The notes beneath the pieces are model-generated. The model saw only the letters and a program-made list of their open reading frames with translations, ran no database searches and had not been told where the DNA came from. 64,000 nt of DNA from Bacteroidia bacterium (GTDB lineage Bacteria; Bacteroidota; Bacteroidia; UKL13-3): contig OZ257140.1 of the NCBI GenBank assembly GCA_965279165.1, forward strand, positions 166,244 to 230,243. Direction: 5' to 3'. Shown in pieces: positions 35,025 through 57,010 of the stretch (position 1 is the first letter of the stretch; each line of letters begins with the position of its first letter). The translations under genes and the position numbers were made by a program.

Positions 35025-36599
35025 TTAATATTTTGAACTTAAATCTTTTGCTACTGCTTCTAAAACCCCGGTTATTTCGTCGTTAAAAATACCTTTCTTT
35101 AATTCGGCCAATACATTGCTGTGTTTGGCTTCTAATAATTGCAGGTAAGAACTTTCAAATTCTTTGATTTTATCGATTGGAACGCTATTTAACAAACCTT
35201 TGGTTCCAAGGTATATGATCGCAACTTGTTTTTCAACGGTTACCGGCGAATATTGTCCTTGCTTCAAAATTTCTACGTTACGTGCACCTTTAGATAATAC
35301 TGCTTTGGTAGCAGCATCTAAATCCGAACCAAATTTCGAGAAAGCTTCCAATTCGCGGTATTGTGCCTGGTCTAATTTTAACGTACCGGCAACCTTTTTC
35401 ATTGATTTAATCTGAGCGTTACCACCCACACGCGATACGGAAATACCTACGTTAATCGCAGGACGAACACCCGAGTTAAACAAGTTAGCTTCAAGGAATA
35501 TCTGCCCATCGGTAATCGAAATTACGTTTGTTGGAATATATGCCGAAACGTCGCCGGCTTGTGTTTCGATAATTGGTAAAGCTGTTAATGATCCGCCACC
35601 TTTCACCAAATGTTTAATGGATTCAGGAACATCGTTCATTGCTTTAGCGATTTCGTCGGTTGAGTTGATTTTAGCAGCCCTTTCTAATAAACGGCTATGT
35701 AGGTAAAACACATCACCAGGGTATGCCTCACGTCCCGGAGGACGACGCAATAACAAAGAAACTTCACGGTAAGCAACTGCTTGTTTCGACAAATCATCGT
35801 AAACAATTAAAGCCGGACGACCCGAATCGCGGAAAAATTCTCCGATAGCAGCACCCGCCATTGGCGCGTAAAACTGCATAGGAGCCGGATCCGATGCGGT
35901 AGCTGCAACGATGATTGAATAAGGCATTGCACCTTTTTCTTCTAACGTTTTTACTACTTGCGCAACAGTCGAAGCTTTTTGTCCGATTGCTACATAAATA
36001 CAATATACCGGTTTACCGGCATCGTAAAATTCTTTTTGGTTGATGATGGTATCGATACAAACCGCAGTTTTACCTGTTTGGCGATCGCCGATAACCAACT
36101 CGCGTTGTCCGCGACCGATTGGAATCATCGCATCAATTGATTTGATACCTGTTTGCAATGGCTCTTTTACCGGTTCACGGAAAATTACTCCCGGAGCTTT
36201 ACGTTCCAAAGGCATTTCGTATAATTCGCCGGTTAATGGACCTTTTCCGTCAATTGGTATACCCAATGTATTTACTACACGACCGGTCATCCCCTCACCT
36301 ACTTTAATAGATGCAATACGTCCGGTACGTTTTACTGTATCACCTTCTTCGATTCCACCTTGTGAACCCAACAATACCGCTCCCACGTTATCTTCTTCAA
36401 GGTTCATCACAATGGCTTCTGTACCATTGTTAAACTGAATCAACTCTCCTGATTGTACTTTGGTTAAGCCAAAAATACGGGCAATACCATCTCCAACTTG
36501 GAGCACAGTACCTACTTCTTCCAACTCAGCAGCCGATTTAAAATTGGTCAGTTGCTCTCTTATGATTGCGGAAACTTCATCAGGTCTAATCTCTACCAT
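35025..36599 (-). CDS. atpA: F0F1 ATP synthase subunit alpha
   Basis: Walker A GDRQTGKT. Full-length alpha subunit. Confidence 0.97.
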
Positions 36600-36606
36600 A
36601 ATTTAT

Positions 36607-37158
36607 TTATTTTGAAATGTACGTGTTTAATAATTCTTGTTTTGCTTTTACCAGACTTCCGGAAATACTGGCATCGTATAATTTATCTTCGGTATGGATA
36701 ATAATACCACCGATTAATTTTGGATCAACAACTGTGGTAACTTCAATTTGTTTACCGGTAAACTTTTCGATAAAAAGCTTGATTTCGTTGTTTGTTTTGG
36801 CATCCAAGGCAATTGCAGATCTTACTTCAGCAACGCCAATATTTTTTATCAATTGGTATTGGGCTATAAATGCTTCTGAGATAGCATTTAAATAATACTC
36901 TCTTTTCTTTTGGATAATAATATGAAAGAAACCCATGGTTTCCTTCATGAATGATTTTTCGAAAATGGCATTCAATACAGCAATTTTCTTATGTCCGTGA
37001 ATAATCGGACTTTTCAATAAGCTGGATAATGGCGGTGTTTTAGCCAGAATATCATGAAACTCTTTAATATCCCTAAATCCCTGATCGAGCATATTTTTCT
37101 CAACCAGAAGGTCTATCAGGGCTTTTGCGTATCGATTGGCTACTCTGTATTCCGACAT
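36607..37158 (-). CDS. atpH: F0F1 ATP synthase subunit delta
   Basis: OSCP/delta pattern (RYAKALIDL...). Position in the operon. Confidence 0.85.
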   Translation of the reverse strand: MSEYRVANRYAKALIDLLVEKNMLDQGFRDIKEFHDILAKTPPLSSLLKSPIIHGHKKIAVLNAIFEKSFMKETMGFFHIIIQKKREYYLNAISEAFIAQYQLIKNIGVAEVRSAIALDAKTNNEIKLFIEKFTGKQIEVTTVVDPKLIGGIIIHTEDKLYDASISGSLVKAKQELLNTYISK

Positions 37159-37159
37159 A

Positions 37160-37654
37160 TTAGTTTACGCTAATGGATTTCAAGTTTTCGTTCACAAATG
37201 CTTCTTGTTGGGTGCGATCTTCCATTTTAAGGCGAAGAATTTTTTCGGCCATATCCACCGATAGAATTGCTACTTGTTGTTTTAGCTCATTCATCGCATT
37301 GATTTTCGCTCTTTCGATTGCTTCATTTGCATTGGCAACAATTTTGCGCGACTCATCATCAGCCGATTTTTTAGCCTGAGAAATGATGGCATCCTTCATA
37401 TCGTTTGCCTCTTTCATCATGCGATCGCGTTCTTTGCGGGCTTCAACCAGTAATTTTTCGTTATCTGATTTCAACGCATCCATTTGTTTGCGTGCCTCAT
37501 CTGCTGCATTCAATGCATTGTTAATCGAGTCTTCGCGTTCTCTGATTGATTGAAGAATCGGTTTCCATGCAAATTTAGACAATAGATACAGCACGATACT
37601 GAACGTGATGGTCATCCAGAAGATTAAGCCTATACCGGGTTTAACTAACTCCAT
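37160..37654 (-). CDS. atpF: F0F1 ATP synthase subunit B
   Basis: Single N-terminal TM helix followed by a long charged coiled coil. Position in the operon. Confidence 0.85.
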   Translation of the reverse strand: MELVKPGIGLIFWMTITFSIVLYLLSKFAWKPILQSIREREDSINNALNAADEARKQMDALKSDNEKLLVEARKERDRMMKEANDMKDAIISQAKKSADDESRKIVANANEAIERAKINAMNELKQQVAILSVDMAEKILRLKMEDRTQQEAFVNENLKSISVN

Positions 37655-37768
37655 TTTTTTGTTATTGAACGATTAATAATTGTGTACAACAAATGCTGTA
37701 CTTTGGTTTTGATTAAAAATAATTACAGGAATACCGCAATTGGGCATTCCTGTAATTTTTTATATCGA

Positions 37769-38038
<270 letters not shown>

Positions 38039-38073
38039 TTAGTTGTTATAGATTGTTTGTATTGAATGTAAAA

Positions 38074-39276
38074 TTAATGATGCTCTTCGTGGTGGTGTTC
38101 TTCAACAGCTGCACCAAAGTATAAAGAAGATAATAAGGTAAATACATATGCTTGTAAGAATGCTACCAGCAATTCAAGAAAGCTCATAAAAGTTGTAAAT
38201 GCTACCGAAAATGCTGATACTCCAAGTCCAAGACCGGTATTCATGGCTCCAAAGATGAAGATCAAACTGAAGAATCCTAAAATGATGATATGACCTGCAG
38301 TGATATTAGCAAACAAACGAATCATCAATACAATTGGTTTATTGAATAACCCGATAATTTCGATAGGAATCATCAAAGGCAATAACCAACCCGGAACACC
38401 CGGAGGCATAAAAATATGCGACCAATATGCTTTGTTACCGTTAAATGCTGTGATGGCGAATGTAAATAATGCCAAAATCATGGTTACCGCAATATTTCCG
38501 GTTACATTGGCTCCACCCGGAAAGAATGGAATCAAACCAAATAGATTATTGATAAAAATGAAAAAGAATATGGTTAACAAATAAGGAAGGAACTTTTCGT
38601 ATTTCGGACCGATGGATGGTTTAGCAACTTCATCACGAAGAAATATGATGAGTGATTCAATCATATTATTAAAACCTTTAGGGGCTTTTTTATTTGTTTT
38701 ATAATGATTGGCAACTGAAATCATGATGAATAAAAGAAAGAAAACCGCCAAAAACATAGCAGCTACATTTTTGGTAATCGATAAATCATAAAACGAAGCA
38801 TGTTCGTTAACTGTTCCATCTTCATTCAAGGCAACCAATTTATTCTCTTCAATTTTATACCCCATGTATGCCGAATGGCCATGGTGAAAATTTGAAGAAG
38901 AGAAAATATGAACGCCATTATCGTCTTTTATTATCACCGGTAATGGAATAGAAATATGGTGATCGCCCAATGTCGCAATATGCCAATCGTGAGCATCAGC
39001 AATATGTTCCATGATGGTTTTACCTGCGTTGAACTTTTCCGGTTCCCCATGTTCGGCAGTAGCCTCATGGTTGTTAGGTTCTGCATGGTTCACTTCCGAA
39101 GTGGTTACTTCGTGTTCCGATTCTTGCACTTCTTTTTGTTCTCCTTCTAAAGTTTGGTGGCTGGTAGAAGAGTGCTCCTGGGCGTTAACGTATTTTAAAG
39201 TTGCATATCCAACATATAAAACAACAAGAAAAACGGGGATTAAATATCTGAAAATCTTTTTGTTAGTCTGCGCCAT
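38074..39276 (-). CDS. atpB: F0F1 ATP synthase subunit A with long N-terminal extension
   Basis: C-terminal half has the a-subunit TM helices with the conserved Arg (NITAGHIIIL). The N-terminal extension of about 170 aa is typical of Bacteroidota. His/Glu-rich C-terminus. Confidence 0.9.
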   Translation of the reverse strand: MAQTNKKIFRYLIPVFLVVLYVGYATLKYVNAQEHSSTSHQTLEGEQKEVQESEHEVTTSEVNHAEPNNHEATAEHGEPEKFNAGKTIMEHIADAHDWHIATLGDHHISIPLPVIIKDDNGVHIFSSSNFHHGHSAYMGYKIEENKLVALNEDGTVNEHASFYDLSITKNVAAMFLAVFFLLFIMISVANHYKTNKKAPKGFNNMIESLIIFLRDEVAKPSIGPKYEKFLPYLLTIFFFIFINNLFGLIPFFPGGANVTGNIAVTMILALFTFAITAFNGNKAYWSHIFMPPGVPGWLLPLMIPIEIIGLFNKPIVLMIRLFANITAGHIIILGFFSLIFIFGAMNTGLGLGVSAFSVAFTTFMSFLELLVAFLQAYVFTLLSSLYFGAAVEEHHHEEHH

Positions 39277-39284
39277 GAAGCGTT

Positions 39285-39698
39285 TTATTTTTTATAATCG
39301 GGGCGCAAGTTAACCACAAGGAAATAAATTTCAAAAGAAGTATAAAAGAAATACAGCAAAATATAAATTACAATGAGCGTGAAGTCGCGACTGTTGCTGA
39401 ACAACAAATATATCAACAATGGAAATAAAGAGAAAATAAAACGAATACCGATAGCGCCATAGGTTCGCGACATAAACGTTTTATTGTCTTTTTGCAGTCC
39501 GGATTGGGTAATTAAACCGGTTGCCAGCGACAACAAGAAAAAGTATAATAAGGCGGCCCAAGCCCAGGTAGATACTTGTATAGTATGGCTGAATTGAGAA
39601 ATCAACAACATTAATATAGCAATCGTTAAGGTAAAGGTTATTAGTTTTTTTAGAAAAAGGGCTGGATTCATGGACGGCAAAAGTAGCAAAATGTCCAT
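39285..39698 (-). CDS. Small 4-TM membrane protein upstream of atpB (possible AtpI/AtpZ-like)
   Basis: Four hydrophobic helices. Conserved operon position upstream of atpB. Confidence 0.5.
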   Translation of the reverse strand: MDILLLLPSMNPALFLKKLITFTLTIAILMLLISQFSHTIQVSTWAWAALLYFFLLSLATGLITQSGLQKDNKTFMSRTYGAIGIRFIFSLFPLLIYLLFSNSRDFTLIVIYILLYFFYTSFEIYFLVVNLRPDYKK

Positions 39699-39813
39699 TC
39701 GAATTGAAATCCTTTTTCAATTCACGTATAATTTGTGCATTAACTTATTAGGGTAATATGCAGTTAAAATGGGGACAATATGAAGTGAGTTATTTTGCTC
39801 AAACAAAAAAAAC

Positions 39814-40776
39814 ATGCAGACAATCAATCGGAAAAACTTTTTTAAAACGTTGGGAATCATGGGTATTGTAAGTATTTTACCGGATAAGTCAGAAGCCAAA
39901 TTTTTACAACCATTAAGCCTATTCGAACAAACTCTTCAGAAGAAAAGGGTTTTACGGGTTGCTCATTTAACGGATATACATGTTAAGTCGGAAAAGATTT
40001 CAGAATATGGAATGGCTTCAGCTTTAGAAACGGTAAATAATCTTTCCGACAAACCTGATTTTATCATAAACGGTGGCGATTCCATCATGAATGCTGCTTC
40101 ATTTAGCAAATTAAAAGTAAAGGAACAATGGCAAGCTTTTCACCGATTAATGCAAAACCATAATTCATTAGAGATTAGGCATTGCATTGGCAACCATGAT
40201 TTATATGGTTGGGCATTACCCGGTTCTGATTGCGAACATGGAAAACAATGGGCAATGGATGAATACAATTTACAAATGCCTCATTATTCTTTTCAACAAA
40301 ACGGGTGGAATTTTATCGTTTTGGACAGCATTCATCCGCGCAAGACATTTCCCGGTTACTTTGGTAAATTAGATGAATTTCAACTGCAATGGTTGAAACA
40401 AAAACTATTAGAAATACCGTCCGAACAACCTATTTGTATAGTTTCCCACATACCGATTCTTGCCATATGTACTTTTTTTGACGGAAGTTATGTAAACCAC
40501 AACCATTGGTTTGTACCCGACAATGCGTTGCACAATGATGCCATTGTATTACGAGATTTATTTAATACGCATAAAAATGTTAAGGCTTGTATAAGTGGAC
40601 ATATTCATCTAATTGACCATGTTAACTATCTTGGAACAGATTATTATTGCAATGGTGCTGTATCTGGAGCCTGGTGGAAAGGCAATCACCAACAGTTTGC
40701 ACCCTCGTTTAGTGTGATGAATTTCTATTCAGATGGGAGTTCAGACAGAGAAGTGCATTGTTACAACTGGAAATGA
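39814..40776 (+). CDS. Metallophosphoesterase (calcineurin-like), Tat/Sec-signal secreted
   Basis: Motifs DIH, GGDS, GNHD and GHIH of the metallophosphatase fold. N-terminal RKNFFKTLG Tat-like signal. Confidence 0.75.
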   Translation: MQTINRKNFFKTLGIMGIVSILPDKSEAKFLQPLSLFEQTLQKKRVLRVAHLTDIHVKSEKISEYGMASALETVNNLSDKPDFIINGGDSIMNAASFSKLKVKEQWQAFHRLMQNHNSLEIRHCIGNHDLYGWALPGSDCEHGKQWAMDEYNLQMPHYSFQQNGWNFIVLDSIHPRKTFPGYFGKLDEFQLQWLKQKLLEIPSEQPICIVSHIPILAICTFFDGSYVNHNHWFVPDNALHNDAIVLRDLFNTHKNVKACISGHIHLIDHVNYLGTDYYCNGAVSGAWWKGNHQQFAPSFSVMNFYSDGSSDREVHCYNWK

Positions 40777-48579: not shown

Positions 48580-49293
48580 ATGAAATTTATTAAAAGTTTA
48601 TTTAAACCAAAAAATATCTACTTCAGGATAAACATGGATATTATTGAGTTTCCTGAAGGCTGGACTCCTAAACTGGCAATACTTATTAGAAATTTGACCG
48701 AATTCGAAAAAAGAATTATTATTAATATACTCAGAATTTTACAAAGACACCTTGAACGACATTTTGTATTTTGGATGAAATTCGAATTTACAAGAATCAA
48801 GTTCAATAATGATCAATCCATTTTATTCAGAAGTTACTTTGAATTAATAATGATTGACTGGACGATAATAAGTTCTGAATTCACCAAAAGAGAAATTAGA
48901 TCTGAAGTGGGAAAATCGTTGTGGTGGATTCTATATTACTCATTTGATGGATATGACTCTATGTTATATTCTAAAAAAGTATTCAGGAACTATGAGGCAG
49001 CTTTTGAAGATAGAAGGCAACTTTATCCAGGAATATTAACGAAATTATTTAGTACTGAAAGTAGTCAAAATTTAAATTCATTAAAAATCCTTTATATTTT
49101 ATTAGTTGTGAATCCATTAGAAATTGACAAAGGTAACTTTGAAAACCAACCAAATGAACTTAAAGATCACCAAGATTTTAGTGAAATGGAAAATTGGTTC
49201 GAAAACAGATTGAATTTGTTAACTTTTGGACAAGTATTTGGAAAATCTTTAAATCACCTGAAGAGTGAAATAAATAAATTGCAATTTAAATAA
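48580..49293 (+). CDS. Hypothetical protein in AT-rich islet (237 aa)
   Basis: ORF in a segment of clearly lower GC than its surroundings. No recognisable domain. Contains RHLERH. Confidence 0.55.
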   Translation: MKFIKSLFKPKNIYFRINMDIIEFPEGWTPKLAILIRNLTEFEKRIIINILRILQRHLERHFVFWMKFEFTRIKFNNDQSILFRSYFELIMIDWTIISSEFTKREIRSEVGKSLWWILYYSFDGYDSMLYSKKVFRNYEAAFEDRRQLYPGILTKLFSTESSQNLNSLKILYILLVVNPLEIDKGNFENQPNELKDHQDFSEMENWFENRLNLLTFGQVFGKSLNHLKSEINKLQFK

Positions 49294-49388
49294 TAATGAA
49301 TCTGCTTTTCAATTAAGTTGTTCATTCAAGAAGGTTTGCCAATGATTTTTTTATTTGATAAATTCACAAAACAATTGAAATTCATATA

Positions 49389-49874
49389 ATGGGAAATTTT
49401 AAAGACTTAGAATCTGAGTTTATTGAACGGACATTGCGCCTTCTTTCACAGTATGAGGGTATAACTTACAAATACAAATTTGAAGAACAATTTAATCACA
49501 CTTTGCTTGTAAACTGTTTACTTGGATTAATTGTATTACCAAAAGAAAAGACTATTATTTATTTGCCAAATACAACCTGGAGTATGGAGTTGAAAACCAA
49601 AATGGGCATAGAAAATTCAACATTTAACAAAAATATCACTAATCTAAAAGATTTGATAATTGCATTACGACATACTGTTGCACACTTTGACATCACATTT
49701 GAATCAAAAAGTGATGAGTTTTTAATTGACTTTATAGTTTTTAAGGATAGAAAGAAAGGAAAAAACTATGTTGTCGCTTCCTTTGTACCATTAGAACTGA
49801 TTTGTTTTCTTCGATACTATGGTAATTGGTTAGTAAGTATAATTCGTGAACATCAAGGAAATATTAAATCTTAA
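49389..49874 (+). CDS. Hypothetical protein with HEPN-like Rx4H motif (161 aa)
   Basis: ALRHTVAHFD resembles the Rx4-6H motif of HEPN/Abi-type RNases. Small alpha-helical protein in the AT-rich islet. Confidence 0.5.
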   Translation: MGNFKDLESEFIERTLRLLSQYEGITYKYKFEEQFNHTLLVNCLLGLIVLPKEKTIIYLPNTTWSMELKTKMGIENSTFNKNITNLKDLIIALRHTVAHFDITFESKSDEFLIDFIVFKDRKKGKNYVVASFVPLELICFLRYYGNWLVSIIREHQGNIKS

Positions 49875-51905: not shown

Positions 51906-52041
51906 ACAACGCCTTTAAGGGTTGCTAGGCGTCAACTTAAATACCTAACTATAAAATTAGTTTCCAAATATAGAAACTTTTATTACCTTTGTTTAAGACT
52001 ATGAATAAAATGTATGAATGAGATTCTTTGAAACGAGATTT

Positions 52042-52359
52042 ATGGAAGAAGCGAACGAGTTTATTTCGAAACTAGATAGAAAGTCAATTCGTAAGATTTT
52101 CTATAACATCGACCTTGCCGAACAAACCAATGATCCCAAATTGTTTAAAAAACTTCAAAACGATATCTGGGAACTTAGAACAAAATTTGGTGGACTACAG
52201 ATTCGGCTTTTAGCCTTCTGGGACAAGACAGACAATAAGAAAACACTGGTAATAGCGACACATGGCTTTGTGAAAAAGGTCGACAAAATTCCAGCTAATG
52301 AAATTGAAAGAGCAAGCAGACTTAGAGATAAATATTTTGAAAACAAACGTAAAGACTAA
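52042..52359 (+). CDS. Type II TA toxin, Gp49-like/HigB-RelE family
   Basis: IWELRTKFGGLQIRLLAFWDK...LVIATHGFVKK matches the phage Gp49-like RelE/HigB fold. Start chosen at MEEANEF. Confidence 0.65.
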   Translation: MEEANEFISKLDRKSIRKIFYNIDLAEQTNDPKLFKKLQNDIWELRTKFGGLQIRLLAFWDKTDNKKTLVIATHGFVKKVDKIPANEIERASRLRDKYFENKRKD

Positions 52360-52363
52360 TCAT

Positions 52364-52690
52364 ATGGCAACCAAAAAAATGAAGACTTATTCACTTGCCG
52401 AAATGAAAGACAAATTCATCGGTAAGGTTGGAACAACAGAACGTGACGATTATGAATACGAGCTTAGAATGGACGTTTTAGGAAAGATGATTAAAACTGC
52501 TAGACTAGAAAGACATTTGACACAAGAAGAACTTGGAAAATTAATTGGTGTTCAAAAAGCTCAAATATCCAAATTAGAAAGCAGTGCAAATAGCGCAACC
52601 ATTGATACAGTTATAAAAGTATTTAAAGCATTGAAAGCAGAAATCAACTTCAATGTCAAAATTGAAGACGACTATTTGACTCTTGCGTAA
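52364..52690 (+). CDS. HTH XRE-family antitoxin (HigA-like)
   Basis: HTH segment LTQEELGKLIGVQKAQISKLE. Lies immediately downstream of the toxin. Start chosen at MATKKMK. Confidence 0.65.
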   Translation: MATKKMKTYSLAEMKDKFIGKVGTTERDDYEYELRMDVLGKMIKTARLERHLTQEELGKLIGVQKAQISKLESSANSATIDTVIKVFKALKAEINFNVKIEDDYLTLA

Positions 52691-52847
52691 GAAAAGCCGA
52701 ACGCCTAACAGCAAGACAGCGCAATTTTTGCTATCTTTATGCAAAGCTACACTTTATGCAAAATGGAGCGAAAACAGCGGCTTGCAAAACGTTTAACATG
52801 GAATGTTATTCGTTTATATCGGATGCTTGCATTGGCGCCTTTACAGT

Positions 52848-52902
52848 GCTGTATACGACTTAGTCTTTTACTGCTGTTATATGGCAACCTAGAAGGTTTG
52901 GA
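52848..52902 (+). repeat. Right direct repeat of islet 3
   Basis: GCTGTATACGACTTAGTCTTTTACTGCTGTTATATGGCAACCTAGAAGGTTTGGA. Confidence 0.7.
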
Positions 52903-53155
52903 AAGGTCGACCTTTACGGTTAATAAAAGATATACGGTAAGCACCGCTTTACATCAAACGATCTATTTGTATACTTGAATAGCCGATGATAGCATGATTT
53001 CGTCTATATCTTACCATATCTTATTGAATATATTATGTAAATAGGATAAGTTCAATATTGATATGGATTATTACTATAAACTTCCATTCATAATTCCAGT
53101 CAAAAGATTTAACTATTTTTAAAATCATATTCTGTGACTATATTGATTTTTTTTC

Positions 53156-54724
53156 ATGGTAAACCTGACACATTATTTTAGGTCCTATTCCTACCGTTAC
53201 AGCAGCTTTGCATTTCTGCTTAGCATTGTGTTTATCTGGTGGCATGGATACCTGTTTAATACAGGCGACCAAGCCGAGCATTTACCACAGGTATATGCCA
53301 TGCTGGATCCAACCCTGTATCCAAATGATTTTTTTCTAAGTTTATACAACCAAACTTTTACGGTAAGGGAATATTGGGTTTGGTTGGTATATGGAGTAGC
53401 AATTGCTATTGGTGTAGAAACAGGTTGTTTTATGCTTTATTTGGTATGTGTGTATTTAACCATTTATGCCTGGATGTTGATTACCCGGCATATTACAGAA
53501 AATGCATTTGCTCCGTTTATTGTTCCGGTTTTACTTTTCTTTATATTCAATTCATTTACTGTTGGCGGAAACACCTTACTTGTAAATTCATTTGTTGGAA
53601 CGATACCGGCAGAGGCATTAGCTAGTTGGGCCATCTTATTCGGACTTAAAAATTCGCCTTATAAAAGTGCCATATTACTCGGAATTGCAGGACTATTTCA
53701 ACTGTTGGTTGGATTGCATGTTTTTATACTTATCAGTATTGTTCAATTAACTTTTGTAACCAATTCGAGATCCTTTTTTAAGTTCGTTAAACAATATTTG
53801 GTTTTCGGATTGGTTGTATCGCCAATGGCATTACCTATTTTCTACCGACAATTATTTGTACCGGTTTCAAGCGAAGACCTCTCCGTATTTTATCAAACCT
53901 TGTATTACCAGCGAGCACCTTGGCATTATATACCTTCTCTATTTTCAATTAAAGATTATCTGCGTTTAATTGGATTGGCTCTATTAGGATTAATTGCCAT
54001 ACGAAAACTGAGAAGCAATGCGCGTTTATATGAAATTAAAATAACAGGTATCGTTATTATCTTCGGTTGTTTATTGTATGAAATTGCATTGGAATGGTTA
54101 GGAATTTCATCCGTTGGAAAATGGCAATGGTTTAAAACTACCGTATGGCTAAATGCCTTGAGCTGTGTTTTAATTGGCGGTGCAATAGCACAATTTGCGG
54201 GATTAAAAGAGCAGGTAAGTCGGAAAGGTAGATTATGGAATATTGTATTTCTGGTTTCGGGAATGACAGGATTGTTATGGCTCACTCAAACAGAAATACT
54301 ATTACCGGAAAAAATAAGTAACCGTTATCAAATTGGAAATTATAAAAAAACCGACTTGCAAAAAATGCACGCTTGGATATCGGATAGCACATCAAAACAA
54401 AGTTGTTTTTTAATTCCACCGGATAACGAATCTTTTGGATGTGAAGCCAAACGCGCTACTCCGGTTAACTATAAGGCATTGGTACATGAAGCATTTTACT
54501 TTAAAGCTTGGAGGGAAGGCATGGAACGATATTATAAGGTCGATTTTGAAGCGGTTGGGAATAATCCTGTATTGCCAATAGCAGTTAGTAATTATTATGC
54601 CTATCCTATTAATTCAACAATGGATATTGAATATCAATTATGCAATCAAAAGTTGATGAAACATCAATGGAATAAACCCAATATTGTGCATCAGGAAGGA
54701 ATTTGGGTTTTGTTAAAGAAATAA
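53156..54724 (+). CDS. Polytopic integral membrane protein (about 12 TM helices, unknown function; possible glycosyltransferase-C-like)
   Basis: Many hydrophobic helices and a C-terminal soluble domain. The C-terminus QEGIWVLLKK* is copied in degenerate form inside the downstream repeat array. Confidence 0.5.
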   Translation: MVNLTHYFRSYSYRYSSFAFLLSIVFIWWHGYLFNTGDQAEHLPQVYAMLDPTLYPNDFFLSLYNQTFTVREYWVWLVYGVAIAIGVETGCFMLYLVCVYLTIYAWMLITRHITENAFAPFIVPVLLFFIFNSFTVGGNTLLVNSFVGTIPAEALASWAILFGLKNSPYKSAILLGIAGLFQLLVGLHVFILISIVQLTFVTNSRSFFKFVKQYLVFGLVVSPMALPIFYRQLFVPVSSEDLSVFYQTLYYQRAPWHYIPSLFSIKDYLRLIGLALLGLIAIRKLRSNARLYEIKITGIVIIFGCLLYEIALEWLGISSVGKWQWFKTTVWLNALSCVLIGGAIAQFAGLKEQVSRKGRLWNIVFLVSGMTGLLWLTQTEILLPEKISNRYQIGNYKKTDLQKMHAWISDSTSKQSCFLIPPDNESFGCEAKRATPVNYKALVHEAFYFKAWREGMERYYKVDFEAVGNNPVLPIAVSNYYAYPINSTMDIEYQLCNQKLMKHQWNKPNIVHQEGIWVLLKK

Positions 54725-55400
54725 TCACGAGCGTGACGCTCGCGAGAACGGAGCGTGACGCTGACTAATAATACGTGAGGCCTAAATTTATTTAATAATC
54801 ACGAGCGTGACGCTCGCGAGAACGGAGAGCGTGACGCTGACTAATAATACGTGAGGCCTAAATTTATTTAATAATCACGAGCGTGACGCTCGCGGGAACG
54901 AAGAAGGCGAATGGGTGTTGTTAAAGAAATAACCACGAGCGTGACGCTCGCGGGAACGGGGAAGGCGAATGGGTGTTATTTAGGAAGTAATCACGAGCGT
55001 GACGCTCGCGAGAACCGTCACATAGAAAGCACTATTATTCAAAACGAATCACGAGCGTGACGCTCGCGAGAACGGATTATCAATTATGCAAGCATGACTT
55101 GGTAAAGTATGCACTTGATGAAACTAAGGTGGTACATCGGGAAGGCAAATGGGTGTTGTTAAAGAAATAACCACGAGCGCGACGCTCGCGGGAACGGGGA
55201 AGGCGAATGGGTGTTATTTAGGAAGTAATCACGAGCGTGACGCTCGCGAGAACCGTCACATAGAAAGCACTATTATTCAAAACGAATCACGAGCGTGACG
55301 CTCGCGAGAACGGGTGTTTTAAAATTAATCTCGAACGTGACGCTTTCGGAGACGGTTGTAGATTAGACATTAATCACGAGCGTGACGTTCGCGGGAACGG
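54723..55400. repeat. Array of 11 copies of a 29-bp palindromic repeat AATCACGAGCGTGACGCTCGCGAGAACGG separated by 13-95-bp segments, several of them duplicated
   Basis: Repeat starts at 54723, 54797, 54873, 54931, 54989, 55047, 55169, 55227, 55285 and, more degenerate, 55327 and 55372. It contains the nested palindromes CGAGCG-TGA-CGCTCG and CTCGCGAG. Segments S1 and S2 are about the same, S4 equals S7, and S5 equals S8. S3, S4, S6 and S7 resemble the upstream gene's 3' end. Confidence 0.9.
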
Positions 55401-55478
55401 TTGAGCGTAAGGCTAGTTGCACAACTTTTGGCGGAAAACTTTGGACTGATCACTTTTCCTTATCTTTGCCCTTTTACT

Positions 55479-55781
55479 ATGGAAATCATTCATTTTACAG
55501 AAGCAGCACTTGTCGCAATCAATCAATTTAAACAAACATTACATGTACCTGAAGATCATTATTTACGCATTGGAATCAGACAGAAAAATGAAAGCAACAA
55601 AAGGTTGGTTATAGGCTTTGATGAAAAATCAGAAAAAGACCAATTGAAAACCGTGCAAGGTATTGAAATCATTTATTCGCCAGGAGAAGTCTTTTTCTTT
55701 GCAGGAATGGCGATTGATTATTCGGAGAAAGATAACCGTAAAGGATTTACATTCGTAGAACAAAAAAACATTGTTTCTTGA
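55479..55781 (+). CDS. HesB/IscA-like domain protein lacking the conserved Cys ligands
   Basis: Start at [11 protein letters not shown]. HesB-like pattern (LRIGIRQ...GFDE...IDY...GFTF) but none of the three Cys residues. 4-bp overlap with the downstream permease gene. Confidence 0.45.
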
Positions 55782-57010
55782 TTTTCAGAGATAAAATAGC
55801 ACTATCGTATCAGTCCATCAAAGGTAATAAACTCAGGGCAATCATAACTGCCTTGATTATATCCATTGGAATCATGGCATTGGTAGGAATACTTACGGCC
55901 ATTGATGGTATAAAATCATCCATCAACCAAAACTTTTCGGACATGGGGGCCAATACTTTTAATATCAAAAACAGAGGCAGTAATGTTCAGTTTGGAGTTA
56001 AAGGAAAAGCACCGAAGCGCTACCAAAAAATCACCCGATATGAGGCTTATGAATTTAAGGAATCGTATACGTATCCATCGGTAGTTTCATTATCCGTTAA
56101 CGCATCCTTTGCAAGCACCGCCACTTATCAATCACAGAAAACTGAACCCAATATTATGGTGATGGGCGGTGATGAAAATTACCTGAAAATAGCAGGATAT
56201 AATATTGAACTTGGCAGGCCATTTAACCGTCAGGATATTACTTCAGCTGCCAATGTTTGTTTGATTGGTAAAAGTGTTAGGGATAAATTATTTAAGAAGA
56301 AGATACCAATAGGAGAAAGCATTCAGGTTGGTAGTGCCAAATACCGTGTGGTTGGCACTTTGATGGAAAAAGGTTCATCCATGGGTTTTGGAGGCGACAG
56401 AATTATTATCGTTCCCATAGAAAATGCCAGGCAGGTTTTTGCAAGACCTAACATGAGTTTTGTAATAACAGCAGCTATTGATAACGTGGGTCAAATGGAT
56501 GTTGCCGTAGAAGAAGCCAGAGCGGTATTTCGAAATATTCGCAGGTTAACGGCTAACCGGGACGACAATTTTGAAATTGTAAAAGCAGATAATATCGCCG
56601 AAGATTTGATAGATAATTTAAAATATGTAACATGGGCCGCAACGATTATAGGTATCATTACCTTATTGGGTGCAGCAATTGGGCTAATGAATATCATGCT
56701 GGTATCAGTAACCGAACGTACCAGAGAAATAGGCATCCGGAAGGCAATTGGTGCAAATAATAAAACTGTACTTGCTCAGTTTTTATACGAGGCAATTATG
56801 ATTTGTGTTTTTGGCGGTATTGGAGGAATTATACTGGGAATAGTTATCGGTAATATTGTGTCGTTACTTTTAAATGGAGGATTTATCATTCCTTGGTTAT
56901 GGATTACAGGCGGTTTAATAATTTGTATACTCGTTGGATTGGTATCAGGAATTTACCCGGCATACAAGGCCTCGAGATTGGATCCGATTGAGGCACTGAG
57001 GTACGAGTGA
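55778..57010 (+). CDS. ABC transporter permease, FtsX/MacB-like
   Basis: N-terminal TM helix, MacB-type periplasmic domain and a C-terminal FtsX 3-TM bundle. No ATPase gene adjacent in the window. Confidence 0.8.

Follow-up and report, generated by a model that had tools for sequence, protein, structure and literature searches.

The locus discussed here lies in a 64-kb stretch of DNA (hereafter the window) and consists of an array of direct repeats (54723-55400) placed between the stop codon of a membrane-protein gene and the putative promoter of the next gene. The upstream gene (53156-54724, + strand), defined from the ORF list and its translation, encodes a 522-aa protein with a Pfam DUF6798 match (E = 8e-10); the protein has 80 homologs, the best non-self one being 48% identical. 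The TAA stop codon of this gene (54722-54724) overlaps the first bases of the first repeat, and its last 31 codons (54630-54722, + strand, EYQLC...IVHQEGIWVLLKK), referred to below as the live tail, are resembled by several of the segments that separate the repeats. Past the array, a putative Bacteroidetes-type promoter, TTTG-N17-TATCTTTG (55440-55468, + strand), named after the consensus of Bacteroides promoters, ends 10 nt upstream of the next ATG, and the syntenic locus L121 has a similar TATCTTCG equally far upstream. The gene that follows (55479-55781, + strand) encodes an IscA/ErpA-like Fe-S cluster biosynthesis protein and is in turn followed by a MacB/FtsX permease gene. Elsewhere in the window, a switch in GC skew and gene orientation at about 38-39 kb was considered as a replication origin and rejected (15 DnaA boxes found versus 24 expected); it reflects operon orientation.

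The repeat is a 29-nt palindrome present in eleven direct copies within 54723-55400 and nowhere else in the window. Ten copies match the consensus AATCACGAGCGTGACGCTCGCGAGAACGG with at most 3 mismatches, all of them on the + strand and inside the array, while 100 shuffles yielded 0 chance matches; the eleventh, R10 (55327-55355), is degenerate, with 7 mismatches. An earlier note on this DNA had the count of eleven 29-bp copies right but implied a register for R10 that is 3 nt off, and its variable spacing of 13-95 bp measures 13 to 93 nt. The spacers S1 to S10 are 45, 47, 29, 29, 29, 93, 29, 29, 13 and 16 nt long, and the repeat copies are about 94% alike. Altogether, the array resolves into three tandem sub-arrays with periods of 76, 58 and about 43 nt (42-45).

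The first sub-array, with the 76-nt period (96% matches), comprises R1 (54723-54751, 0 mismatches), S1 (54752-54796), R2 (54797-54825) and S2 (54826-54872). S1 and S2, already noted as near-identical, differ in fact only by a 2-nt indel, and both open with a truncated second hairpin (GAGCGTGACGCT). Then come R3 (54873-54901, 2 mismatches), S3 (54902-54930), R4 (54931-54959), S4 (54960-54988), R5 (54989-55017), S5 (55018-55046, 29 nt), R6 (55047-55075) and the long S6 (55076-55168), all on the + strand. R4 has an AACC...GGGAACGG variant in common with R7. The next stretch, R7-S7-R8-S8-R9 (55169-55313, + strand), forms together with the last 28 nt of S6 the second copy of a 173-nt block duplication, in which 54903-55075 and 55141-55313 match at 171 of 173 positions, and this is why S4 equals S7 and S5 equals S8. 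The duplication had been recognised before, with the narrower limits 54931-55075 and 55169-55313. Its offset of 238 nt is exactly S6+R7+S7+R8+S8+R9 (93 + 5x29), so that whole units were duplicated. Finally, S9 (13 nt, GTGTTTTAAAATT), R10, S10 (16 nt) and R11 (55372-55400) fill 55314-55400 (+ strand) as the sub-array of 42-45-nt period. No inverted-repeat pair was found in the array.

Four of the spacers, S3, S4, S6 and S7, repeat the end of the DUF6798 gene, over its last 9-31 codons. The longest, S6, spans 31 codons (DYQLCKHDLVKYALDETKVVHREGKWVLLKK and a stop) and is identical to the live tail at 66 of 93 nt, in frame and free of indels and stop codons up to its end. S3 reads EGEWVLLKK and a stop, and S4, like the identical S7, reads EGEWVLFRK and a stop; in all of them the final TAA overlaps the next repeat. 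Aligning the last 93 nt of the gene with the 1.4 kb downstream gave a best local score of 59, compared with a shuffle maximum of 28. The attribution of these four segments to the gene tail, proposed in the earlier note, was confirmed, with the correction that S3 is only the duplicated end of S6 (27/29) and not an independent copy. S9 is possibly a third tail fragment, shorter still. S1, S2, S5, S8 and S10 are not tail-derived, and a search for the origin of S1/S2 and S5/S8 returned only weak, chance-level matches, including 8 nt in common with a REP flank at the locus L123 and low-scoring, AT-rich matches to the DUF6798 gene; our best explanation leaves these segments unaccounted for.

What kind of element is the repeat? 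REPs of REP/RAYT systems are short (20-40 nt) imperfect palindromes able to form a stable hairpin, and the repeat is of this kind. On the minus strand it is predicted to fold into a 9-bp stem, including one G-U pair, with a 3-nt loop (-13.9 kcal/mol, z = -2.3). The subtype to which it belongs can be defined by a hairpin of 17-19 nt that has AATC in front of it and RRAAC behind it (GTTYY on the opposite strand). Among the matches listed, more than 120 loci contain the 19-nt hairpin core, which in low-GC Flavobacteriia is a dispersed intergenic element, and 153 hairpin copies in 70 low-GC loci of other genomes are enriched at 100 nt or less from ORF ends. In 13 Flavobacteriia loci a RAYT homolog lies within about 100 nt of the hairpin. 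The earlier note had suggested looking for the 29-mer in the whole genome and in related ones. The exact subtype flanks RAYT genes at three other loci, L022, L123 and L129, standing at the last of them on both sides of the gene and in both orientations. The outer motifs AATC...RRAAC recur in two REP classes whose hairpins differ and which each stand next to a RAYT paralog of their own; the second class (AATCGCGCATTGCAAATGCGCGAGAAC) is absent from the window. In most Flavobacteriia the boundary motif is CYAGCGGGG.

Two RAYT proteins, P0117 and P0135, are attributed to the window's genome. They score 100.4 and 95.0 bits against the NCBIfam model NF047646 'REP-associated tyrosine transposase' (cutoff 80 bits) and keep the HUH and YIHxNP motifs, with H59, H61 and Y141 invariant, and the nearest relative of P0117 examined (78% identity) carries the REP subtype of the array. 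It is from such relatives that the number of REP copies in the window's genome, and the likely presence of REPs beside its own RAYT genes, would be deduced; inside the window the REP is confined to one cluster. The motifs and length of these RAYTs fit TnpA-REP subclass 2.6, which has been described as 'flanked by atypical secondary structures' with 'copies elsewhere in the genome' (Quentin et al. 2018, PMC6006769), while RAYT group 5 has about 31 copies of the flanking 16-mer per replicon (Bertels et al. 2017, PMC5581495). The element falls outside the GTAG-tagged REP superfamily (Di Nocera 2013; Nunvar 2010), since the GT[AG]G 5' tetranucleotide is absent, and this absence fits the 'atypical' structures reported for subclass 2.6. 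The RAYT association favours a generic REP that underwent local tandem duplication. With a probability that we put at roughly 0.78, the array is a cluster of REP elements of a Bacteroidota-specific RAYT family (TnpA-REP subclass 2.6 / RAYT group 5) that grew by local tandem duplication.

Does the array belong to the gene or to the repeat? Neither array nor tail copies were present at any of seven homologous DUF6798 loci (7/7), including the syntenic L121, which keeps the Fe-S and MacB/FtsX genes and has no REPs. These control loci rule out the array as a property of the DUF6798 gene family, and the tail copies therefore belong with the REP and not with the gene. A metagenome scan with the 26-nt subtype returned only L123, a close relative of L022, and no second tail-containing array, and we found no other locus where a cluster of this REP family contains a gene tail.

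Arrays of this appearance invite comparison with several systems that shuffle or store sequence. A 29-nt, partly palindromic repeat and five of ten spacers of 29 nt, giving a regular 58-nt period, recall a CRISPR array, possibly a degenerate or orphan one with scrambled spacers, a reading to which we attach next to no credence. The spacers include duplicates (S1~S2, S4=S7, S5=S8) and vary in length between 13 and 93 nt, four or five of them derive from the adjacent gene at only ~70-86% identity, and Rfam has no match in the array. A PADLOC scan of the 52 window ORFs detected no Cas family, so no Cas protein is encoded in the 64 kb, and in other genomes the repeat stands beside RAYT transposase genes and is scattered as single copies. 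On these grounds we rule CRISPR out, in agreement with the earlier note, which saw no cas genes nearby and held the array not to be a canonical CRISPR. A diversity-generating retroelement (DGR) is ruled out as well, as the top Pfam families of the window ORFs include no reverse transcriptase and the differences between tail copies fall on all four bases (A accounts for 5/27 or 11/27, depending on which copy is taken as template). The same applies to an integron, given that the window has no integrase gene and the units, 42-122 nt long, contain no ORFs, and to a shufflon or another invertible switch, for which integrase, invertase and inverted repeats are all lacking in the window.

A related proposal, that the orphan tails are silent cassettes able to replace the last 10-31 residues of the membrane protein, would make the locus a programmed C-terminus switch. 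The tails do keep frame, stop codon and family-like residues, and a 14-nt identity between gene and S6 (TATCAATTATGCAA) could support a deletion fusing S6 to the gene. Nevertheless, such a deletion would be irreversible and one-way, all repeats are direct, and genes for a recombinase, an invertase or a reverse transcriptase are missing from the window. S3, S4 and S7 are only 29 nt long and have no homology upstream of the junction that a reversible exchange could use, the variants differ mainly by conservative changes in 9 residues, the mutations follow no adenine-specific pattern, and the cassettes are absent at the seven homologous gene loci. We consider switching very improbable, and the switchable C-terminus suggested in the earlier note found no support; its alternative of a recombination hot spot is a fair description. 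On our preferred reading the tail copies are non-functional fossils.

How could a REP cluster have come to hold pieces of a gene? We infer growth by recombination, as follows. One REP would have arrived directly against the DUF6798 stop codon, in this lineage alone, and the cluster would then have grown locally by tandem duplication via two routes, namely unequal recombination between near-identical REP copies and slipped-strand or illegitimate recombination between the G-rich 3' boundary of the REP, ..GAAC-GG(GGAAGG), and G-rich codons of the tail (ATG-G, CGG-GAA-GG, TGG-G). Because left breakpoints fell inside the gene, tail fragment, stop codon and REP would have been copied as a unit. The 238-nt whole-unit duplication and the 76-nt duplication would have come later, and the tail fossils would either have drifted or stem from an older allele. 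The earlier proposal that repeated recombination at a REP-like palindrome copied the gene tail is upheld, the palindrome being the REP of a Bacteroidota RAYT family. Consistent with the slippage route, every tail copy starts right after ..GAACGG, and in the source tail a GG, found at ~9% of positions, stands just 5' of each junction point. At two unrelated loci, too, a REP is followed by GGGGAAG, for which the background is 4e-5 per site and which matches CGGGAAGG of the tail. The junction microhomologies are short (2-7 nt), one of them needs a 1-nt adjustment in a G-run, and their significance is modest. Tandem growth that includes flanks is seen in other genomes too, with four direct REPs plus 17-26 nt of flank at a 55-nt period (L072), six units of REP doublets plus flank of about 115 nt (L073) and a 49-nt period at L022/L123. 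Indeed, tandem REP clusters that take in flanking DNA have already been described (Di Nocera et al. 2013).

The same junctions might be read as the work of the transposase. The RAYT would cut single-stranded DNA at the 3' boundary of the REP (..GAAC/GG) and at look-alikes in the tail (AAYGG) and re-join the ends during replication, so that units of tail fragment plus REP move and duplicate as IS200/IS605-like single-stranded circles, instead of through slippage or recombination by the host. The genome is credited with two intact RAYT genes, the outer motifs AATC...RRAAC retained in two REP classes have the pattern expected of enzyme-recognised boundaries, all junctions lie exactly at ..GAACGG with source sites resembling AAYGG, and the single orientation of the eleven copies is what a strand-specific process would leave. 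The present evidence does not distinguish enzyme-made from microhomology-mediated junctions, and unequal crossing-over between REPs is enough to account in full for both the 238-nt and the 76-nt duplication. We know of no demonstration that RAYT strand transfer moves flanking DNA. We regard copying by the RAYT as distinctly unlikely and prefer the growth by host recombination and slippage set out above.

The divergence of S6 sits uneasily with simple duplication. Along the length of S6, differences from the live tail number 1/16, 21/47 and 5/30 (Fisher p = 0.001), the identical positions coincide with the conserved positions of the protein family (Mann-Whitney p = 0.004), and the family-majority residues D1, A13 and V19 are kept in S6 and lost in the live tail. 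A heterogeneous divergence that tracks conservation is not predicted by plain duplication and neutral drift. The differences fall 9/4/13 on the three codon positions, a suggestive bias that is not significant (p = 0.096). Such protein-like divergence hints that S6 is a displaced older or foreign allele. Followed to its end, this would mean that the orphan tails, or at any rate S6, once served as functional C-termini of the gene, each displaced when the 3' end of a diverged allele, together with its REP, was recombined in from another strain. The route would be homology-facilitated illegitimate recombination, with homology in the gene body on one side and a join at or near the REP on the other, and the cluster would be the scar of successive tail swaps, a scheme that can be combined with slippage for the short units. 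In this respect, toxin-antitoxin modules have been inserted to either side of the neighbouring GH3 gene when compared with the gene order of L122, which argues that the region took up foreign DNA, and a paralog as donor of the tails is ruled out, only one DUF6798 protein having been found in the window's genome. Against this, no donor-like allele was found in the databases, where the best homolog is 48% identical and has a tail unlike S6, the conserved ends of S6 could also come from gene conversion together with the adjacent REPs, and, S3 being a recent copy of S6, there are only two or three independent tails. On balance, we hold 3'-end allele replacement to be unlikely. A broader proposition, to which we would give low odds, is that REP clusters act as landing pads that both mediate and record 3'-end exchange, RAYT cleavage or REP-anchored recombination having introduced the diverged tail+REP unit of another lineage in exchange for displaced, once-functional C-termini; the array would then preserve, in layers, the turnover of C-terminal alleles of a fast-evolving membrane protein.

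Whatever its origin, the cluster begins where the DUF6798 message ends, the first hairpin starting 4 nt after the TAA. On the plus (mRNA) strand the REP pairs over 6+2 bp, interrupted by an A-C mismatch, and lacks a U-tract, and no Rho-independent terminator-like site was found on this strand. Five terminator-like sites exist, all on the minus strand, where the A-rich Lys-Lys-stop codons read as a U-tract. A search of 53000-57000 against Rfam at E <= 1 gave only a chance sRNA match outside the array. By analogy with E. coli REPs, the post-stop hairpins probably act as a 3'-end mRNA stabiliser or a partial terminator, and stop-codon-proximal REPs have reportedly been connected with ribosome stalling.

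The assignment removes a false CRISPR-like lead and places the array in a poorly documented Bacteroidota REP/RAYT family, for which published accounts stop at 'atypical secondary structures' and which now has a concrete sequence definition. As the copied flank is coding, unit boundaries and junctions are legible to the nucleotide, making the growth of a REP cluster readable and the locus a convenient natural substrate for deciding whether RAYTs or host recombination expand such clusters. On the practical side, an array of this sort may be annotated by mistake as a CRISPR, and gene calls may come out too long or too short at their 3' ends. Were the displaced functional tails to prove true, REPs would take part in the exchange of gene ends, a finding of broader interest.

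How does the array compare with known systems? With subclass 2.6 / group 5 it shares an imperfect palindrome that is short and GC-rich within an AT-rich genome and lies outside genes, close to their 3' ends, with identical copies flanking, in relatives, a single-domain Y1 HUH transposase of about 177 aa (SHVH / WQ / YIHxNP motifs) and, to judge by those relatives, probably a moderate copy number. It departs from proteobacterial REPs in having the outer motifs AATC...RRAAC in place of a 5' GT[AG]G tag, and from the REP/RAYT norm in that its eleven copies are direct and not in inverted pairs and that the same 19-nt hairpin occurs across many genera instead of being species-specific. As in E. coli BIMEs and the clustered GTAG-1/GTAG-23 REPs (Di Nocera et al. 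2013), REPs and flanks are reiterated in tandem, in sub-arrays with distinct periods, and REP termini contribute to or abut stop codons. Unlike BIMEs, which alternate in orientation and have defined linker motifs, the array is uniform, with 11/11 copies on the + strand, so that it does not qualify as a BIME (the alternating REP form is present in another genome, at L073), and its reiterated 'linker' can be recognised as the 3' coding end of the gene upstream, with its stop codon. The position of stable hairpins just past a stop codon and between co-directional genes resembles that of E. coli REP325 in yjdMN (Harris et al. 2026 bioRxiv), but compared with E. coli 3'-UTR REPs the mRNA strand here has the A-C mismatch and lacks a U-tract, the better hairpin and the U-tract being antisense, as judged from the sequence alone. 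CRISPR arrays share the 29-nt direct repeats with dyad symmetry and the partly regular 58-nt period, and differ in having cas genes, none of which is in the window, and spacers that are not duplicated, self-derived and variable around a dispersed, transposase-associated element. Finally, displaced and diverged 3'-end copies directly downstream of a live gene are also known as the orphan C-terminal modules of rhs/cdiA and as duplicates of gene 3' ends (att remnants) where genomic islands have integrated. The former span hundreds of codons and come with immunity genes, and the latter are made by an integrase and separated by kilobases of island DNA, whereas the fragments of the present array, with no integrase in the window, measure 4-31 codons and have only 29-nt REPs between them.

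The array at 54723-55400 is a cluster of repetitive extragenic palindromes (REPs) that belongs to the subclass 2.6 / group 5 RAYT system of Bacteroidota and has undergone tandem expansion, carrying along the 3′ end of the gene next to it. A scan of the 64-kb window with the 29-mer AATCACGAGCGTGACGCTCGCGAGAACGG gave 10 matches at ≤3 mismatches, all on the + strand and within 54723-55400, whereas the rest of the window contained 0, with 0 expected by chance. Together with a degenerate copy at 55327-55355 (7 mismatches), these account for the eleven palindromic repeats (R1 to R11) counted in the earlier note. Mean identity among the REP copies is 93.6%, and the segments between them (S1 to S10) measure 45, 47, 29, 29, 29, 93, 29, 29, 13 and 16 nt. 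The near-identity of S1 and S2 proved correct, a 2-nt indel being their sole difference, and so did the reported block duplication, which extends over 173 nt (54903-55075, present again at 55141-55313 with 171/173 positions identical). It follows from this duplication that S4 equals S7, S5 equals S8 and S3 repeats the end of S6. Tandem Repeats Finder distinguished three sub-arrays, with periods of 76 (96% matches), 58 (67%) and 42-45 nt (75%).

What is the repeat? When its 19-nt core CACGAGCGTGACGCTCGCG was scanned against one genome per prokaryotic species, at least 120 loci were recovered. Among the matches listed, around half were single chance matches within genes of high-GC organisms, and the other half belonged to low-GC Flavobacteriia and other Bacteroidota (Flavobacterium, Maribacter, Arenibacter, Zobellia, Muricauda, Aquimarina, Eudoraea, Chryseobacterium, Halpernia and a Dyadobacter MAG). 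In the low-GC Bacteroidota the GC-rich hairpin is intergenic, usually in the form gg-CACGAGCGTGACGCTCGCG-CYAGCGGGG, and has loop variants nearby, often as inverted doublets. The hairpin at 54726-54744 is identical across many genera and at least two Bacteroidota orders (L006-L118, e.g. L016, L031, L044, L074), and its flanks vary by lineage, being CYAGCGGGG in most Flavobacteriia and AATC...RRAAC in the window. The window flanks (ATCACGAGCG...GCGAGAAC) were found at locus L022, as three direct copies adjoining a 175-aa ORF with the motif SHVHM; in metagenomes, the sole match to this 26-nt subtype was L123, the same locus of a close relative.

The L022 ORF matches Pfam Y1_Tnp, and in 13 other fetched Flavobacteriia loci a homolog (45-49% identity) lies within about 100 nt of the palindrome. 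In JGI and NCBI annotation, homologs of this protein go by 'REP element-mobilizing transposase RayT' or 'REP-associated tyrosine transposase'. Two of them, P0117 and P0135, are attributed to the window's genome; with 100.4 and 95.0 bits they pass the curated cutoff (80) of NCBIfam NF047646 (REP-associated tyrosine transposase) and retain the HUH histidines and the YIHxNP tyrosine. The 64-kb window itself contains no RAYT gene. The closest fetchable relative of P0117 (P0109, 78% identity) has the window REP subtype on both sides and in both orientations, and a second REP class, AATC-GCGCATTGCAAATGCGC-GAGAAC, which keeps the outer motifs of the window subtype but has a different hairpin, flanks the closest relative of P0135 (P0129, 84%). 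This second class is absent from the 64-kb window. The REP-like palindrome of the earlier note is thus a REP, the same subtype flanking RAYT genes in relatives. In metagenome ERZ19026152, two RAYT paralogs of one organism (L129:2690-3650 and L130:2880-3570) each have their own REP class, with AATC...RRAAC in common and unrelated hairpins (CACGAGCG-GAC-GCTCGCG and CGCGCATT-GCAA-ATGCGCG); orthologs of both RAYTs exist in the window's genome, but the window contains only the first REP class. At ~177 aa, and with (S/N)H[LIV]H, WQ and YIH[QN]NP as motifs, the proteins fit TnpA-REP subclass 2.6, which occurs mostly in Bacteroidetes, is described as 'flanked by atypical secondary structures' and corresponds to RAYT group 5 of Bertels et al. 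(Quentin et al. 2018, PMC6006769). For group 5, flanking 16-mers have ~31 genomic copies (Bertels et al. 2017, PMC5581495).

The earlier note was right that this is no canonical CRISPR array: the repeat is a REP, the segments are duplicated and partly tail-derived, and PADLOC models found no Cas protein among the 52 window ORFs, in agreement with the claim that cas genes are absent nearby. Rfam gave no match inside the array. The switchable C-terminus that had been suggested is not demonstrated; Pfam detected no integrase or reverse transcriptase in the window, where the neighbourhood is housekeeping (RecA, ATP synthase, LeuRS, T9SS-sorted proteins), and no inverted-repeat pairs were found. 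A DGR was also rejected, since differences between S6 and the gene's tail fall on all four bases, without an adenine signature. The 3′ part CGCGCCAGCGGGG common to flavobacterial REPs (3′ flank GCTCGCGCCAGCGGGG, e.g. L031, L036, L118) is a 13-mer that also forms the core of the type I-E CRISPR repeat in E. coli (GAGTTCCCCGCGCCAGCGGGGATAAACCG), probably a coincidence of two GC-rich palindromes.

The gene involved encodes a 522-aa DUF6798 membrane protein (53156-54724, + strand), and the first repeat begins within its TAA. REPs of the fetched loci are over-represented near ORF ends: 18% and 30% lie within 100 nt on the two sides, vs 6-7% for random positions. Only 1-2% come within 6 nt of a stop, and it is owing to this rarity that the flank of the window cluster is recognisable as coding sequence. 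S6 is identical to the gene's last 93 nt at 66/93 positions, with neither indel nor stop, and S3, S4 and S7 match its last 28-29 nt. Each copy is closed by an in-frame TAA that overlaps the following repeat, and independent tail lineages are 69-86% identical across the shared 29 nt. Aligned with the downstream 1.4 kb, the gene's last 93 nt scored 59, whereas shuffled tails reached 28 at most; the earlier description of S3, S4, S6 and S7 as degenerate gene-tail copies is confirmed. S1 (54752-54796), S5 (55018-55046) and S8 (55256-55284) are not tail-derived and match no other fetched sequence; S1 begins with a truncated second hairpin, and the start of S5, TCACATAG, resembles TTACATAG, the sequence after the last REP of L022/L123, where a convergent gene has its stop region.

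S6 does not look like a decaying copy of today's tail (54630-54722). Differences between the two are unevenly spread along the length (1/16, 21/47 and 5/30; Fisher p = 0.0012), number 9/4/13 at codon positions 1/2/3 (p = 0.096), and spare conserved DUF6798-family positions (mean entropy 1.99 at agreeing positions vs 2.61, Mann-Whitney p = 0.0037); at 3 positions S6, and not the live tail, keeps the family's majority residue. The window's genome has no DUF6798 paralog able to donate S6. On one reading, S6 would be an older or foreign functional allele displaced through recombination, which we consider unlikely and which would leave the REP classification unchanged. On the other, gene conversion with adjacent REPs would keep the copy ends alike while the variable middle of the live tail diverged.

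How did the array grow? The 238-nt offset of the 99% block is exactly S6+R7+S7+R8+S8+R9 (93 + 5×29), such as unequal crossing-over between REPs would produce, and the 76-nt sub-array probably reflects a recent duplication of REP+S1. Tail-bearing units would require a left breakpoint within the gene. Every tail copy starts directly after the REP boundary ..GAACGG, and in 3/3 junction classes the source tail has GG (in AATGG or TCGGG) just 5′ of the copy start, a property of only 8/91 S6 positions. GAAC-GGGGAAGG joins R4 and R7 to short tails, and this string also follows REPs at L022 (agaacacggggaag) and L130 (agaacatggggaagg), two loci unrelated to the window's; GGGGAAG has a background of 4e-5 per site. 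If the G-rich extension is native to some REPs, it would have 7 nt in common with the His-Arg-Glu-Gly codons of the tail (CGGGAAGG), and a single slippage between the two would give exactly the 58-nt unit. Because of the unit arithmetic and the junction microhomologies, both read from sequence, we favour growth by unequal crossing-over between REPs combined with events at short microhomologies, either hairpin-promoted slippage or illegitimate recombination. The same junctions would result if a RAYT cleaved and rejoined the DNA at the REP boundary and at look-alike sites.

In seven DUF6798-homolog loci, where the downstream gap ranges from overlap to 234 nt, neither a REP array nor a downstream copy of the gene's own tail was found (scores 16-24, within shuffles). 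One of them, L121, keeps the order DUF6798, Fe-S biosynthesis gene, MacB/FtsX, with downstream-gene DNA 76% identical, and its source metagenome also holds both closest RAYT relatives. The REP therefore reached this site after the lineages split. As far as sequence comparison goes, the tail copies go with the REP, not with the gene. Tandem reiteration of REP plus flank is in fact frequent in this family: 4-5 direct REPs with a copied 17-26 nt flank (L072:2640-2900, 55-nt period; Flavobacteriaceae MAG), six tandem doublets of alternating orientation with ~70 nt flank (L073:5800-6470, ~115-nt period; Pustulibacterium marinum), both near a RAYT gene, and the L022/L123 tandem (49-nt period). Clustered REPs reiterated along with stretches of neighbouring DNA have been described before (Di Nocera et al. 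2013). Between the very close relatives L022 (5090-5210) and L123 (4960-5090), the middle copy of the three-REP array differs in its loop (GTGAC vs AAGAT), which shows rapid turnover or conversion among REP loop variants at a fixed site.

The hairpin begins 4 nt past the DUF6798 stop codon, and Liang, Rudd and Deutscher reportedly showed in 2015 that terminating ribosomes stall where a REP lies within ~15 nt of the stop codon. REPs in E. coli 3′-UTRs are partial Rho-dependent terminators and protect the mRNA upstream of them against degradation (Harris et al. 2026, bioRxiv 10.64898/2026.03.23.713779). By analogy with these E. coli REPs, effects of the array on expression are likely. On the mRNA strand, an A-C mismatch weakens the stem and there is no U-tract; on the minus strand, a 9-bp stem is followed by UUAUUUCUUU, a U-rich run that is the reverse complement of the Lys-Lys-stop codons. 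Terminator-like scores were obtained for five copies, on the minus strand only (54725-54745, 54933-54953, 55049-55069, 55171-55191 and 55287-55307). With no gene transcribed in from the right, they would serve, if at all, as a block to antisense transcription. The element TTTG-N17-TATCTTTG at 55440-55468, upstream of the Fe-S gene ATG (55479), is a putative promoter of the Bacteroidetes type and has a counterpart in L121; the downstream operon is probably independent of read-through across the array.

The neighbourhood has acquired small mobile modules. Compared with the syntenic L122, where LplA, GH3 and DUF6798 are adjacent, extra accessory genes flank GH3 on both sides (48580-49874 and 52018-52978): on one, a 237-aa ORF of no assigned family and a HEPN (pEK499_p136) protein, in the stretch of lowest GC in the window (0.29); on the other, a Gp49/HigB-like toxin, an HTH antitoxin and a 79-aa ORF. 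Further away, within ~36000-40000, both the minimum of cumulative GC skew and a minus-to-plus flip in gene orientation fall near 38-39.8 kb, where the ATP synthase operon lies. Operon orientation appears to account for this; a replication origin was rejected, DnaA boxes being without enrichment (15 found vs 24 expected).

The locus adds a modest twist, gene-tail fossils of which one has coding-like divergence, and it supplies a useful sequence definition for a little-described REP family. The clusters at L072 and L073 are textbook-like, the latter resembling a BIME in its alternating orientation. Proteobacterial REPs of the GTAG superfamily carry a GT[AG]G tag, whereas the window element has none and thus falls outside that superfamily. 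Moreover, proteobacterial REPs are usually species-specific, whereas the CACGAGCGTGACGCTCGCG hairpin is common to many genera; such deep conservation suggests that the hairpin has either co-evolved tightly with the RAYT or spread horizontally as part of the REP/RAYT system (REPtron).
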